A DNA stretch of 64,000 nt from Escherichia phage vB_Eco_F31: sequence record OP870147.1, one strand, 5' to 3'. Under the pieces are notes generated by a model, which worked only from the letters and a program-made list of their open reading frames with translations, ran no database searches and was not told where the DNA came from. Below are positions 10,859 to 51,893 of this stretch, in pieces. Positions within the stretch are counted from its first letter, which is position 1. The number at the start of each line of letters is the position of its first letter. The position numbers and the translations under genes are program-made.

Positions 10859-11671
10859 ATGATCAAAGAACAACTTTTGAAAGAAGCTCAGAACATCGAG
10901 ACTTCAGTTGCTCTTAATAGTGTTTTCGAATCAGTAGAACTGTCTCCGGACGTTAAAGCTAATTTCAGCACTGTATTCGAAGCCACCGTTAAGCAGGAAG
11001 CAGTCAAACTGGCTGAATCTCATATCAAAGCCATCGCCGAAAAGGCCGAAGAAGAAGTTGAAAAGGCCAAAGAAGATGCTGAAGAGAAAGCTGATAAAAA
11101 ATTGGCTGAACAAGCTTCTAAATTCCTAGACCATCTTGCAAAAGAATGGCTCGCAGAAAACCAAATCGCAGTTGATAAAGGCATTAAAGCTGATTTGTTC
11201 GAATCCATGCTTGGTGGTCTGAAAGAACTGTTTGTTGAACATAACGTTGTTGTTCCAGAAGAATCTGTAGATGTTGTAGCAGAAATGGAAGAAGAGCTGG
11301 CCGAACATAAAGAAGAAACCGCTCGTTTGTTCGAAGAAGTTACCAAACGTGATGCATATATCAATTACGTTCAGCGTGAAACCGCTATTAATGAAAGCGT
11401 AAAAGACCTGACTGAATCTCAGAAAGAAAAAGTTATTGGCCTGGTTGAAGGTATGGATTATTCTGACGCATTTGGTACTAAGTTAACTGCTATTGTAGAA
11501 ATGGTTAAAGGTTCTACTAAAGAAGAAGCCGCTATTACCGAAAGTATAAATACAGTTGACAATGACGCTGCCGGTCTTAATTTTGTTGCCGAAGCAGTTG
11601 ACACTACCACAACTCAGGTAGAACAGAATTCTAATGTAAGTTTATATGCGAAAGTCGCATCTCGTTTCTAA
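10859..11671 (+). CDS. 22: prohead scaffolding core protein gp22
   Basis: 270 aa, E/K-rich helical protein; directly upstream of major capsid gene as in T4. Confidence 0.85.
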   Translation: MIKEQLLKEAQNIETSVALNSVFESVELSPDVKANFSTVFEATVKQEAVKLAESHIKAIAEKAEEEVEKAKEDAEEKADKKLAEQASKFLDHLAKEWLAENQIAVDKGIKADLFESMLGGLKELFVEHNVVVPEESVDVVAEMEEELAEHKEETARLFEEVTKRDAYINYVQRETAINESVKDLTESQKEKVIGLVEGMDYSDAFGTKLTAIVEMVKGSTKEEAAITESINTVDNDAAGLNFVAEAVDTTTTQVEQNSNVSLYAKVASRF

Positions 11672-11688: not shown

Positions 11689-13257
11689 ATGACTACTATC
11701 AAAACTAAAGCTCAGCTCGTAGACAAATGGAAAGAACTGCTGGAAGGTGAAGGCCTGCCGGAAATCGCTAATAGCAAGCAGGCTATTATCGCTAAAATCT
11801 TCGAAAACCAGGAAAAAGATTTCGAAGTATCCCCTGAATATAAAGACGAGAAAATCGCTCAGGCATTTGGTTCTTTCTTGACCGAAGCTGAAATTGGTGG
11901 TGACCATGGTTATAATGCTCAGAACATCGCAGCAGGTCAAACCTCTGGTGCAGTAACCCAAATTGGGCCGGCAGTTATGGGTATGGTTCGTCGTGCTATT
12001 CCTAATCTGATCGCTTTTGATATTTGTGGTGTTCAGCCTATGAACAGCCCTACCGGTCAGGTATTTGCTCTCCGTGCAGTATATGGTAAAGACCCTATCG
12101 CTGCTGGCGCTAAAGAAGCTTTCCATCCGATGTATGCCCCAGACGCGATGTTCTCTGGTCAGGGTGCTGCTAAGAAATTCCCAGCTCTGGCTGCTGACAC
12201 TACTACTGTTGTAGGTGATATCTATACTCACTTCTTCCAAGAAACTGGTACTGTATATCTGCAAGCTTCTGCTGTCGTAACACTTGATTCTAGTGCAACT
12301 GATGCAGCTAAATTAGATGCAGAAGTTAAGAAACAAATGGAAGCTGGTGCACTGGTAGAAATCGCTGAAGGTATGGCTACTTCTATCGCTGAACTCCAGG
12401 AAGGTTTCAACGGTTCTACCGATAACCCATGGAATGAAATGGGCTTCCGTATCGATAAACAAGTTATCGAAGCTAAATCTCGCCAGCTGAAAGCTGCTTA
12501 CTCTATCGAATTAGCACAAGACCTCCGTGCAGTACACGGTATGGATGCTGATGCTGAACTGAGCGGTATTCTGGCTACAGAAATTATGCTAGAAATCAAC
12601 CGTGAAGTTGTTGATTGGATTAACTACTCAGCACAGGTTGGTAAATCCGGTATGACCCTGACTCCGGGTTCTAAAGCTGGTGTATTTGACTTCCAGGACC
12701 CGATTGATATCCGTGGTGCTCGTTGGGCCGGTGAAAGCTTTAAATCTCTGTTGTTCCAGATTGATAAAGAAGCAGTTGAAATTGCTCGTCAAACCGGTCG
12801 TGGTGAAGGTAACTTCATTATCGCTTCCCGTAACGTAGTTAACGTACTGGCTTCAGTTGATACTGGTATTTCTTACGCTGCACAGGGTCTGGCTTCTGGT
12901 TTTAATACCGACACTACTAAGTCTGTATTTGCCGGTGTACTTGGTGGTAAATACCGCGTATACATCGACCAGTATGCTAAACAGGATTACTTCACCGTTG
13001 GTTACAAAGGCGCTAACGAAATGGATGCAGGTATTTACTATGCTCCTTACGTTGCACTTACCCCGCTGCGTGGTTCCGATCCTAAGAACTTCCAGCCGGT
13101 AATGGGCTTTAAAACTCGTTACGGTATCGGTGTTAACCCGTTTGCTGAAAGTTCCCTGCAGGCTCCAGGTGCTCGCATCCAGTCCGGTATGCCATCTATC
13201 CTGAACAGCCTTGGTAAGAACGCTTACTTCCGCCGTGTATATGTAAAAGGCATCTAA
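11689..13257 (+). CDS. 23: major capsid protein gp23
   Basis: 522 aa; sequence very close to T4 gp23 as recalled (MTTIKTK...EGEGLPEIANSKQAIIAKIFENQEKDF ... GKNAYFRRVYVKGI). Confidence 0.97.
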   Translation: MTTIKTKAQLVDKWKELLEGEGLPEIANSKQAIIAKIFENQEKDFEVSPEYKDEKIAQAFGSFLTEAEIGGDHGYNAQNIAAGQTSGAVTQIGPAVMGMVRRAIPNLIAFDICGVQPMNSPTGQVFALRAVYGKDPIAAGAKEAFHPMYAPDAMFSGQGAAKKFPALAADTTTVVGDIYTHFFQETGTVYLQASAVVTLDSSATDAAKLDAEVKKQMEAGALVEIAEGMATSIAELQEGFNGSTDNPWNEMGFRIDKQVIEAKSRQLKAAYSIELAQDLRAVHGMDADAELSGILATEIMLEINREVVDWINYSAQVGKSGMTLTPGSKAGVFDFQDPIDIRGARWAGESFKSLLFQIDKEAVEIARQTGRGEGNFIIASRNVVNVLASVDTGISYAAQGLASGFNTDTTKSVFAGVLGGKYRVYIDQYAKQDYFTVGYKGANEMDAGIYYAPYVALTPLRGSDPKNFQPVMGFKTRYGIGVNPFAESSLQAPGARIQSGMPSILNSLGKNAYFRRVYVKGI

Positions 13258-14964: not shown

Positions 14965-14973
14965 AAAAAAAAA

Positions 14974-14989
14974 GGGACCGTAAGGTCCC
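14974..14989. terminator. bidirectional terminator GGGACC-GUAA-GGUCCC flanked by A11 and T5
   Basis: Hairpin between convergent genes 24 (+) and rnlB (-); poly-A upstream and poly-T downstream. Confidence 0.6.
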
Positions 14990-14996
14990 TTTTTCG

Positions 14997-21947: not shown

Positions 21948-22573
21948 TATAGTAACTCAAAGAATTCTTTGAGGCCTCGTATTGTGTGAACGTGTGACGC
22001 CCCACATTTGGGACATTTAATAGGGGTTGCTAGATAAATTGATGGTGATACTAAAAGATTTTTAATATTGATCATGTCATCTTCCGTTATAAGGCCATAA
22101 AGGTCGTTTATTTCTGCTTCAGTTAAATCTTCAACAGGGATGGACTCTCCATTGACAAAAACGGCCTCAATACATGAAGCAATCATTAATGCGATATTTT
22201 TATCGTCAAATAATTTAGGTTGACGGAACTTAATTTTAATACCGCTGAACGAATACCAGGGATCGGCCTGTTCATCTAATTGAGTGTGCAATAAATTCAT
22301 ATAGACTTGAAATGAATGCCCACAGGAACAATTCCAGGTGTGTTCTTGATTCACTTCACCTAATGAATGGGCCCACAGATTTACCAACAATAGCTCGGCT
22401 TCTTGTTTAGTCAAGTTTTTAGCGTTAGAGCAATTAGTGATAATATTGTTCACTGCTGATTCAATAGTACCGGTAGCCCGTGCACCTATGAGTCCTAAAT
22501 ATTCTTTTAAAGTAAAGGCTCTACAATTCACTTCTTTATCGCCTAAACGTACGGTAAACGTATATTTGTACAT
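21947..22573 (-). CDS. 26: baseplate hub protein gp26
   Basis: 208 aa, same as T4 gp26; divergent from gene 51. Confidence 0.8.
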   Translation of the reverse strand: MYKYTFTVRLGDKEVNCRAFTLKEYLGLIGARATGTIESAVNNIITNCSNAKNLTKQEAELLLVNLWAHSLGEVNQEHTWNCSCGHSFQVYMNLLHTQLDEQADPWYSFSGIKIKFRQPKLFDDKNIALMIASCIEAVFVNGESIPVEDLTEAEINDLYGLITEDDMINIKNLLVSPSIYLATPIKCPKCGASHVHTIRGLKEFFELL

Positions 22574-28872: not shown

Positions 28873-28878
28873 GAAAAA

Positions 28879-28895
28879 GGGAGACGTTGTCTCCC
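28879..28895. terminator. bidirectional terminator GGGAGAC-guu-GUCUCCC between gene 54 and the 97-aa ORF
   Basis: 7-bp stem flanked by AAAAA upstream and TTT downstream. Confidence 0.55.
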
Positions 28896-28904
28896 TTTAG
28901 GGGT

Positions 28905-35738: not shown

Positions 35739-36104
35739 TTAGATATCAAATTCGTTAAGAACTACATCAAAGATTGCTTCGAGATGTTCAGGTTTAGCTC
35801 GGTTACTCAGGATATGACGAATCCAAGTTTTAACCAGAAGTTTACGATTAACACCATTCCAGCAAGGATGAGTACCTAAATCACGCTGACGGAAATCATC
35901 ATCTAATGCAATTTTAAAATTTGAACCTTCCATCGTGATTGAAACCGTGATACCATTTTCAAATCGCATATAAACGTAATTAGGAGTCATGCACTGTTCG
36001 ATTTCACAAACTGTACCGTTTTCGTGTTTCCATAAGCAAATAACTTCAGAAGAACCAGCAATACCGTTAGAAACATATTTACGTTCGAAGTTGGTGTAGT
36101 TCAT
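35739..36104 (-). CDS. hypothetical protein (121 aa)
   Basis: ATG at 36104 with GGAG RBS and early-promoter motif upstream. Confidence 0.55.
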   Translation of the reverse strand: MNYTNFERKYVSNGIAGSSEVICLWKHENGTVCEIEQCMTPNYVYMRFENGITVSITMEGSNFKIALDDDFRQRDLGTHPCWNGVNRKLLVKTWIRHILSNRAKPEHLEAIFDVVLNEFDI

Positions 36105-36145
36105 TTTATTCTCCAGATGTTTAAGTTGTTTGTTGGTACAGGTCT

Positions 36146-36174
36146 ATAATAACATAACCTGTACCAAAGTAAAC
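36146..36174 (-). promoter_or_regulatory. early-promoter-like motif GTTTAC-N17-TATTAT
   Basis: Minus strand GTTTAC ... TATTATAGACCTGTACCA; -10 bracketed by inverted repeat GGTACAGG/CCTGTACC. Confidence 0.45.
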
Positions 36175-36547: not shown

Positions 36548-36589
36548 TTTGTTCTCCAGGTTGTTTTATTGATTAGATGGTACAAGTCT

Positions 36590-36618
36590 ATAGTAACACA
36601 TCCTACAGGAGAGTAAAC
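36590..36618 (-). promoter_or_regulatory. early-promoter-like motif GTTTAC-N17-TACTAT
   Basis: Minus strand GTTTAC ... TACTATAGACTTGTACCA upstream of the 122-aa gene. Confidence 0.45.
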
Positions 36619-36654
36619 ATCTTTTTAAACTTTTTCTGCCCTAAACGCACAAAA

Positions 36655-36672
36655 GGGAGACCGAAGTCTCCC
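36655..36672 (-). terminator. rho-independent terminator GGGAGAC-UUCG-GUCUCCC + UUUU (minus strand)
   Basis: Same 18-nt hairpin as at 13282, 51876 and 60200; follows stop of the 59-aa ORF. Confidence 0.55.
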
Positions 36673-36677
36673 TAAAA

Positions 36678-40144: not shown

Positions 40145-40173
40145 TTCGATTTCCTCATTGTATTGGTAGAGTT

Positions 40174-40203
40174 ATAGTATCACAACTCCACCATGTTGTA
40201 AAC
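40174..40203 (-). promoter_or_regulatory. early-promoter-like motif GTTTAC-N18-TACTAT
   Basis: Minus strand GTTTAC ... TGATACTAT, leader ...CAATGAGGAAATC then ATG of 78-aa gene. Confidence 0.45.
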
Positions 40204-42271: not shown

Positions 42272-42299
42272 TTAGATTTCCTCAATTATCCATAGGAGC

Positions 42300-42329
42300 A
42301 TTATACTCTGCTCCCGAGAGTTTGTAAAC
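42300..42329 (-). promoter_or_regulatory. early-promoter-like motif GTTTAC-N18-TATAAT
   Basis: Minus strand GTTTAC ... TATAAT (perfect -10), then GAGGA and ATG of 99-aa gene. Confidence 0.5.
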
Positions 42330-43705: not shown

Positions 43706-43735
43706 ATAGTAACACCTTCCTTGGTGTTTGTAAAC
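43706..43735 (-). promoter_or_regulatory. early-promoter-like motif GTTTAC-N18-TACTAT upstream of alc
   Basis: Minus strand GTTTAC ... TACTAT, then GAGGAG and ATG of alc; directly after rnlA stop. Confidence 0.45.
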
Positions 43736-44871: not shown

Positions 44872-44888
44872 TCAGTTAGTTTTTTTAA

Positions 44889-44918
44889 ATTGTACCACAA
44901 TCCTTGTGGTATGTAAAC
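44889..44918 (-). promoter_or_regulatory. early-promoter-like motif GTTTAC-N18-TACAAT upstream of rnlA
   Basis: Minus strand GTTTAC ... TACAAT; spacer contains inverted repeat CCACAAggaTTGTGG; then GAGGA and ATG. Confidence 0.45.
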
Positions 44919-51082: not shown

Positions 51083-51331
51083 TTATTTCCTCAGATTTTT
51101 CTTAACAACTTTCCAATCAGCTTTAAACGATTCAACATCAGAGTGGTGAATCCAGAATCCTGCACTTTCACCATCTTCGTAGAGTGGACATCCATCACAT
51201 TCTTCGTTCCAACCCATTTCACGTAAAGCTTCTTCAGCTTGTTCAAGGAGTTCAGCGTCTTTACCAACGATGTTGAAGTACCATTTACCTCTAACTTCAG
51301 AATCTTTGATGCTCTGGCGTTGCAATCTCAT
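51083..51331 (-). CDS. hypothetical protein (82 aa from ATG at 51331)
   Basis: Track start 51346 is GTG; ATG at 51331 has AGGAG RBS and early-promoter motif upstream. Confidence 0.5.
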   Translation of the reverse strand: MRLQRQSIKDSEVRGKWYFNIVGKDAELLEQAEEALREMGWNEECDGCPLYEDGESAGFWIHHSDVESFKADWKVVKKNLRK

Positions 51332-51364
51332 TTTATTCTCCTTCACTTTTGATTTGATAGGGCT

Positions 51365-51394
51365 ACTATAACATAACCCTATCTTGTTATAAAC
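51365..51394 (-). promoter_or_regulatory. early-promoter-like motif GTTTAT-N18-TATAGT
   Basis: Minus strand GTTTAT ... TATAGT; -10 bracketed by inverted repeat GATAGGG/CCCTATC (51356-51383). Confidence 0.4.
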
Positions 51395-51875: not shown

Positions 51876-51893
51876 GGGAGACCGAAGTCTCCC
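51876..51893 (-). terminator. rho-independent terminator GGGAGAC-UUCG-GUCUCCC + U-tract (minus strand) after gene 32
   Basis: Identical 18-nt hairpin 7 nt after gene 32 stop, followed by UUUUG. Confidence 0.55.

Follow-up and report, generated by a model that had tools for sequence, protein, structure and literature searches.

Promoter-early stem-loops (PeSLs) were defined in the phages RB49 and phi1 as composites of a sigma70-type early promoter, an AT-rich upstream region with the stop codon of the preceding gene, and a Shine-Dalgarno sequence (SD) and start codon on the 3' side (Arbiol et al. 2010, Genome Biol Evol 2:140; PMC2839356). Their stem-loops, which were drawn with G-T pairs, most often lie between the -35 and -10 elements or overlap the -10 (PMC2839356). 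One G/C-rich stem from RB49/phi1 reduced lacZ expression to a degree similar to that of the rrnB T1 terminator, and in these phages PeSLs recombine with each other and mini-circles form (PMC2839356). The family was extended to the phage pairs T4/PST and KVP40/nt-1 (Comeau et al. 2014; PMC4122927), and PeSLs have been proposed to be attenuators as well as recombination patches (PMC2839356; PMC4122927). A related arrangement is found in the translational masks of the T4 genes e, soc, 49 and I-TevI and of Aeh1 mobE, in which a promoter is located inside a hairpin (PMC3014915).

The elements described here occur in a 64,000-nt stretch of Escherichia phage vB_Eco_F31 (record OP870147.1; the window), which is classified as Straboviridae, Tevenvirinae, Mosigvirus (RB69 group). 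Around the first of them (site 1), a 3-kb piece shares 99.8% identity with Escherichia phage vB_EcoM_WFK, and hundreds of T4-like phages match it. The PeSL layout is known already (PMC2839356; PMC4122927); new are the members in the RB69 group, which neither of these papers covered, and the covariation across genera, a line of evidence for selection on base pairing that the original PeSL papers did not provide.

With PeSLs, the three sites analysed share the early sigma70-type promoter, the AT-rich upstream region with a stop codon, a stem-loop in or over the -10, G-T pairs, and SD and start codon 3' of the promoter; they also share the occurrence in many copies in regions of small early genes and the role of a conserved patch at junctions of gene-module exchange. 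At the sequence level, all features of a PeSL were found at sites 1-3: promoter, position of the stem, stop codon and SD context, repetition and, at site 1, the junction. The arms differ: they are of mixed sequence here, whereas those of RB49/phi1 are a G-run and a C-run, and the figure for PST in PMC4122927 puts the stems just upstream of the promoter (AGNA-loop-TCNT) and not around the -10. Terminator activity and mini-circles have been shown for the RB49/phi1 elements only. The T4 masks resemble sites 1-3 in having the promoter within the sequence from which the 5' strand of the helix is transcribed; there, long transcripts form the helix and local ones are made without it (PMC3014915). The two differ in that the helix of the T4 masks covers the SD or the AUG and the internal promoter is late, whereas the promoters here are early and sigma70-type and the helix stops short of the SD. 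Pairing of SD or AUG in the long transcript is not seen at sites 1-3, where the SD is free in the predicted folds; the SD is covered only in relatives (at 30.7 in the Merlin clade, and at alc in T4 and others).

Anatomy of the three promoters

A sequence-only reading of the window had placed inverted repeats at 36135-36165 (site 1), 51356-51383 (site 2) and 44895-44909 (site 3), with the -10 or the spacer of an early promoter embedded in each. All three repeats are present; they are to be read on the minus strand, which also carries the surrounding genes, as judged from synteny with annotated relatives and T4. Site 1 is located between the homologues of 30.8 and 30.7, site 2 between those of frd.2 and frd.1, and site 3 between those of denA and rnlA. 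Each site consists of a T4-type early promoter followed by SD and ATG; the general pattern is sigma70-type, GTTTAC/T-N17-18-TGn-TAnnAT, 5' of the 30.7, frd.1 and rnlA homologues. The individual promoters are GTTTAC-N17-(TGt)TATTAT at site 1, GTTTAT-N18-(TGt)TATAGT at site 2 and GTTTAC-N18-(TGg)TACAAT at site 3, and all were called by an independent consensus scan, each with the TG of an extended -10. The 30.8, frd.2 and denA homologues end, with their stop codons, 0-5 nt short of the -35, and SD and ATG of the downstream genes are found 35-45 nt after the -10. With the seventh nucleotide after the -10 taken as the expected transcription start (+1), the parts are:

36133..36174, minus: site 1, early promoter of the 30.7 homologue with embedded stem-loop, identified from sequence, promoter scans, repeat, fold, covariation and mosaic junction; -35 GTTTAC 36174-36169, TGt 36154-36152, -10 TATTAT 36151-36146, expected +1 near 36139
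36102..36132, minus: 5' UTR of the 30.7 homologue, an A/C-rich leader; SD GGAG 36114-36111, ATG 36104-36102
51356..51394, minus: site 2, early promoter of the frd.1 homologue with embedded stem-loop, identified from sequence, scans, fold and covariation; -35 GTTTAT 51394-51389, -10 TATAGT 51370-51365, expected +1 near 51358; downstream, SD GGAG 51341-51338 and ATG 51331
44889..44918, minus: site 3, early promoter of the rnlA homologue, identified from sequence, scans and repeat; -35 GTTTAC 44918-44913, -10 TACAAT 44894-44889, expected +1 near 44882; ATG 44862

The repeat at site 1 is a perfect one of 11 bp, TTGGTACAGGT (36167-36157) and ACCTGTACCAA (36143-36133), enclosing a 13-nt loop that contains the TGn and the -10. 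Two of the repeats are longer than originally given, that of site 1 (11 and not 8 bp) and that of site 3. At site 2, the arms GATAGGG (51383-51377) and CCCTATC (51362-51356) form 7 bp as DNA and, when G.U is counted, 11 pairs as RNA, the 5' arm then reaching 51373. Site 3 is an 8-bp repeat, TACCACAA gga TTGTGGTA (44911-44893), that is located in the spacer and extends over the first two bases of the -10. The stems of sites 1 and 2 thus bracket the -10 and that of site 3 is placed in the spacer, in keeping with the embedding that had been noticed; site 3 is the weakest of the three cases.

Stem-loops at other early promoters

The window holds 11-13 early promoters, all on the minus (early-gene) strand, and stems were found in seven of them. 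The further carriers beyond sites 1-3 are P29257, with a 5-bp stem in its spacer, and the following:

40164..40203, minus: promoter P40203; stem TGGTGGAGTT (40193-40184) / AACTCTACCA (40173-40164) around the -10 TACTAT (40179-40174); 10 pairs including one G.T; fold -21.1 kcal/mol, z -3.4
42294..42329, minus: promoter P42329; stem GGAGCA (42314-42309) / TGCTCC (42299-42294) around the -10 TATAAT (42305-42300); 6-7 bp; z -2.1
43706..43735, minus: promoter P43735, 5' of the alc homologue; spacer-internal stem of 6 bp, AACACC (43728-43723) aaggaa GGTGTT (43716-43711)

The arms are unrelated from one promoter of the window to the next: TTGGTACAGGT, GATAGGG, TACCACAA, TGGTGGAGTT, GGAGCA and AACACC. 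Perfect repeats of at least 8 bp with loops of 3-22 nt number 38 in the 64-kb window, compared with ~24 expected. Non-coding DNA, 4.9 kb in all, accounts for eleven of them, of which seven have a tetraloop and resemble terminators; the long repeats of this set that do not look like terminators are sites 1 and 3, each inside a promoter. For a perfect repeat of 11 bp, 0.25 occurrences are expected per 64 kb.

The promoter of the 30.8 homologue (36557-36618, minus) contains GACTTGTACCA, a sequence similar to the 3' arm of site 1, without a complementary 5' arm. A remnant of the same GACTTGTACCA type is kept at 30.7 in two relatives (L018 and L019), and in L019 a new TTGGGTGGT has its partner, ACCACCCAA, at a position further downstream. 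Stem arms seem to be lost and then rebuilt at new positions.

The generality of the arrangement was assessed in a set of 55 loci, obtained from one scan with the RnlA protein and taken with 10-kb flanks. RnlA identity in this set ranges from 100% to 31%, and Escherichia phage EcS1, Citrobacter phage Merlin, Pectobacterium phage PM2 and Erwinia phage Cronus are included. Among the 193 unique early promoters of the 55 loci, 29.5% have a perfect stem of at least 8 bp bracketing the -10, as opposed to 1.7% of chimeras. When one promoter was kept per orthologous site (59 sites), stems of this length remained in 19%, compared with 1.2% of chimeric controls (p ~1e-10); the repeats are non-random and tied to promoters. 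Class B stems, in which the 3' arm directly follows the -10 as at sites 1 and 2, reach at least 8 bp in 19.7% versus 1.0% of controls and are found at 13 of the 59 sites. In class A, the partner of the spacer is the downstream leader with its SD; stems of at least 8 bp are seen in 15% versus 1.0%, at 4 of the 59 sites and mainly at alc (including that of T4) and at 30.7 in the Merlin clade. Spacer-internal stems of the site 3 type reach at least 5 bp in 12.4% of promoters versus 4.5% with shuffled spacers, and at least 6 bp in 1.6% versus 0.8%; the 8-bp stem of site 3 is unique in the data set, and stems of 5-6 bp are common among control sequences. Two apparent associations of the stems did not survive the collapse to 59 orthologous sites: avoidance of an upstream terminator went from a raw p of 4e-7 to 0.36, and abutment of the upstream stop codon on the -35 from a raw p of 3e-9 to 0.54.

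Conservation of base pairing among relatives

T4 has counterparts at all three orthologous spacers. At the orthologous 30.7 and frd.1 promoters (T4, EcS1, Merlin, PM2, Cronus and others), a stem around the -10 stays while the sequences of its arms are replaced, with six distinct arm cores at 30.7 and seven at frd.1. The arms at 30.7, each given as 5' arm / 3' arm and with the number of the locus in the comparison set, include:

EcS1 (L037): GCTGATTGAGTGT / ACACTCAATCAGC
PM2 (L035): TTTGTAGGAGAC / GTCTCCTACAAA
L036: ACTGAGGTTA / TAACCTCAGT
L019: TTGGGTGGT / ACCACCCAA
Cronus (L028): AGGGTTAT / ATAACCCT

At frd.1, the arm pairs in relatives are TAAGGCTAT/ATAGCCTTA, GGAGCTAT/ATAGCTCC, GGTGTAAGAT/ATCTTACACC, GTTGATAGGG/CCCTATCAAC and others. 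A single consensus structure for all 25 frd.1 orthologues (RNAalifold) contained no pairs, because the register of the pairing varies by lineage (i+j = 45, 46, 51 or 52). The shifts were dealt with in two ways, by restriction to a same-register frd.1 subset and by chimera tests that are free of register. In the frd.1 subset that has the register of site 2, 94% of cells are paired, compared with 32-51% when the partner columns are slid; six of the 13 pairs changed on both sides, and the observed covariation score was matched by none of 500 shuffles. In the register-free tests, a stem score of at least 7 was reached by 96% of native frd.1 sequences versus 25% of chimeras made from the same set, and by 71% of native 30.7 sequences versus 22% of their chimeras, likewise from the same set. 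The search for compensatory changes in related phages, by which the sequence-only reading was to be judged, thus gave a positive answer: the stems of 30.7 and frd.1 are kept through replacement of their arms, and base pairing is under selection.

Replacement of the arms and shifts of register with retained complementarity point to a base-paired structure and not to a protein half-site. The layout had been likened to an operator for a dimeric repressor; a half-site shared and kept at orthologous promoters was not found. The arms are unrelated within the genome, they are replaced between lineages and their register shifts while complementarity is kept. A shared repressor half-site is ruled out because the arms are variable, the register is shifting and G.T pairs are tolerated.

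G.T pairs are frequent in the stems. A strand test based on G.T versus A.C mismatches gave 16:9 for internal positions, which is not significant, and was not significant for the outer flank and bridged mismatches; at the loop-side flank, which overlaps promoter consensus bases, the ratio was 31:5 versus 154:78 in chimeras (p 0.02). The test is weak and leaves RNA and DNA undivided.

For site 3, a promoter at the same position is found in two clades only, those of T4 and Mosigvirus. The T4-clade spacers retain CCACA..TGTGG, with A-T (window), T.G (T4) or C-G (L005) as the sixth pair. In T4, a MotA-box-like TGCTT upstream of rnlA (L003 13466-13517) replaces the -35 GTTTAC of the window, and the spacer hairpin CCACA..TGTGG and the -10 are retained, which may represent a switch of promoter class around a kept stem; rnlA is absent from the published table of mapped T4 middle promoters. 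Searches against curated RNA families (Rfam) gave no match at the gathering threshold, and site 1 had only chance sub-threshold matches to microRNA precursors.

Start site, RNA folding and termination

Its location in the spacer puts the 5' arm ahead of +1, and transcription is expected to begin within the 3' arm or beyond it; pairing in the 37 class B stems extends to a median of +5 (interquartile range +1 to +6). The loops measure 8-20 nt, with a median of 12. A transcript from the promoter itself cannot form the hairpin, because the 5' arm is upstream of its start site; only read-through RNA can. Self-initiated RNAs are accordingly predicted to be unstructured (dG 0), including the 5' UTR of the 30.7 homologue in its own-promoter transcript (36141-36095), and the suggestion of a 5' hairpin formed at +1 of the promoter's own transcript has to be abandoned. 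Read-through RNA has a predicted fold of -19.8 kcal/mol (z -2.7) at site 1 and -17.4 kcal/mol (z -4.0) at site 2, with only z -1.4 at site 3. The stems of sites 1 and 2 end 14-18 nt before the SD.

Intrinsic termination was considered and rejected: the loops are long, a T-run follows none of the 37 stems, whose tails are 51% A, and sites 1-3 were not called by a terminator scanner that finds UUCG terminators elsewhere in the window. With the intrinsic terminators of T4-like phages (UUCG or GNRA tetraloop and U-run), the embedded stems share the position of a stable hairpin, with a stop codon directly upstream and an early promoter following; they differ in that their loops hold the -10 and their tail is A-rich and never a T-run. 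Because no T-run follows, the stems are not canonical intrinsic terminators, and the absent U-run argues against simple intrinsic termination. No mapping of T4 3' ends or transcription start sites that covers these sites was found in the literature search.

UUCG-tetraloop terminators with a T-run are located at 51876-51893 and 36654-36673 (minus), just 5' of P51844 and P36618, two promoters that lack an embedded stem; phage PST is drawn with the same upstream stem-loop layout in PMC4122927. Perfect G+C-rich repeats of 11 bp and 10 bp with loops of 3-4 nt are found at 14969-14994 and 28876-28898 between convergent genes, at least the former with T/A runs on both flanks; they look like bidirectional terminators.

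Pairing of the spacer with the Shine-Dalgarno sequence

In several relatives, the partner of the spacer is the ribosome-binding region of the downstream gene. At the alc early promoter, the spacer is complementary to the alc leader and SD in 19 of 30 unique promoters, with seven arm cores. The helices are located as follows:

L003 (T4, NC_000866) 12277-12340, minus: alc spacer/SD helix, AAGUCCCUCGUGUUGUGUU / GACAUAACAUGAGGACUU; -26.9 kcal/mol, z -3.6
L037 ~11148-11200 and L010 19258-19320: alc spacer/SD helix in other relatives

Judged by its predicted pairing, the alc helix is a putative translational mask like those of gene e and I-TevI, except that its promoter is an early one; no description of an alc early-promoter mask was found in the literature search. 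In the Merlin clade, the spacer at the orthologous 30.7 site pairs with the GGAG of the downstream gene, and in many frd.1 orthologues the stem ends only ~5 nt before the GGAG. Spacer-SD pairing at orthologous sites corresponds to the arrangement documented in T4 for the genes e, soc, 49 and I-TevI (PMC3014915). With operator and own-transcript hairpin set aside, the structure has to reside in nucleic acid that covers the promoter from end to end. Transcripts arriving from upstream promoters are its most probable carrier, given that spacer-SD pairing is found in some lineages at these very orthologous sites.

Mosaic junctions

The 42-nt element of site 1 is 95-98% identical among six phages, in which the upstream 300 nt are ~45% identical, with unrelated upstream genes, and the leaders ~64%. 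The locus L031 is a recombinant with its junction at the site 1 element: it combines an upstream gene of the window type with a leader and gene of the L041 type. Similarity breakpoints are ~2-fold enriched at the elements (p 0.009), a figure confounded by gene boundaries because alignments tend to end at any of them. The usable evidence for recombination is the L031 mosaic rather than the breakpoint enrichment.

Proposed role and alternative explanations

The sites are composites of the PeSL type, each probably serving as an inter-cistronic boundary on read-through RNA and as a homology patch for module exchange. The positions left free by the strong promoter, in the spacer and between the -10 and about +5, double as the two arms of the stem-loop. 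RNA from the own promoter would start at the 3' edge of the stem and thus present an open leader with its SD, whereas read-through RNA from upstream promoters would fold the stem-loop a few nucleotides after the stop codon of the upstream gene. There, the stem-loop could mark an inter-cistronic boundary in place of a separate terminator hairpin, either by attenuating or pausing incoming transcription or by shielding the upstream message at its 3' end. Where the 3' arm reaches over the downstream SD, as it does in some relatives, translation from read-through RNA would be masked. As a conserved cassette of 40 nt, the element may in addition provide a homology patch for the exchange of neighbouring gene modules. 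The data show the anatomy, the selection for pairing, the position relative to +1, the missing T-run and the mosaic junction at site 1; from them we infer action as RNA and the nature of the downstream effect.

A different consequence of the same RNA structure would be a translational gate, in which the stem, even at sites 1 and 2, would chiefly lower downstream translation on read-through RNA through a stable helix in or near the ribosome landing zone; the gene would then be translated mainly from own-promoter RNA and fall silent once early promoters are shut off. The class A stems at the orthologous 30.7 and alc sites (15% of promoters versus 1% of chimeras), the frd.1 orthologue stems that come close to the GGAG and the precedent of the T4 masks (PMC3014915) speak for such a gate; for the window it is rather unlikely, since its stems end well 5' of an SD that is unpaired in the predicted folds and class A occurs at few of the orthologous sites. 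Alternatively, the structure could matter in DNA: extruded as a cruciform or folded into a single-strand hairpin, it would mark a recombination site for the shuffling of modules, or it could ease melting of the -10. Covariation alone cannot separate RNA from DNA pairing, the G.T versus A.C test being weak, and PeSL recombination with mini-circles in RB49/phi1 (PMC2839356), the mosaic junction at site 1 and the breakpoint enrichment all fit a DNA-level function. Loops of 8-20 nt, however, make cruciform extrusion very unfavourable, homologous recombination needs the conserved patch only and no repeat, class A pairing with the SD makes sense only for RNA, and the breakpoint enrichment carries the confounding by gene boundaries, which together render a DNA-level structure decidedly improbable.

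Shut-off of a subset of early promoters by a dimeric repressor would find its operator where repressors typically bind, with a dyad overlapping the -10 and +1, and the shut-off of T4 early promoters is still unexplained (PMC2988021); yet the promoters of the window have no half-site in common, and the replaced arms, shifting registers and tolerated G.T pairs at orthologous promoters make an operator extremely unlikely, and the analysis gave no support to promoter-specific shut-off. Equally slim are the prospects of chance or of a neutral by-product, such as quasi-palindrome template-switch mutations in an unconstrained spacer. Stems of 5-6 bp are common in controls and spacer-internal stems of at least 6 bp are scarcely enriched (1.6% versus 0.8%), and this account could apply to site 3 and the short stems, but the expectation for a repeat of 11 bp is 0.25 per 64 kb, the excess (19% versus 1.2%) was obtained at independent sites, and the stem has outlasted full replacement of its arms in several genera; covariation refutes chance for sites 1 and 2.

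Implications

In a more far-reaching reading, the embedded stems could form a general switch of T4-like phages that reports which promoter made an RNA: the spacer would encode the anti-leader or anti-SD strand, and each early cistron would reach full expression from its own promoter only and be damped on read-through RNA. We regard this extension as doubtful. Were it true, the shut-off of early promoters would entail a fast collapse in the synthesis of the whole early protein set, which would bear on the unexplained rapid shut-off of early expression (PMC2988021).

Dyad symmetry over a phage -10 need not mean an operator; here it is a second code in the free positions of the promoter. The elements are also natural junctions for the exchange of gene modules, which is useful in annotating and engineering therapeutic T4-like phages.

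Reading frames at the frd.2-frd.1 boundary

In T4, an unannotated open reading frame of ~22 hydrophobic codons (MFAPYIMAAVMLVCLYLLIKAC) follows the promoter and a GGAG between frd.2 and frd.1 (L003 ~22007-22075, minus). The reading frame MFAPYIMAAVMLVCLYLLIKAC is absent from the window, where the promoter abuts frd.1. The mechanically assigned start of the frd.1 homologue in the window is a GTG (51346); its true start is the ATG at 51331, because GGAG-N7-ATG is found at 51341-51329.
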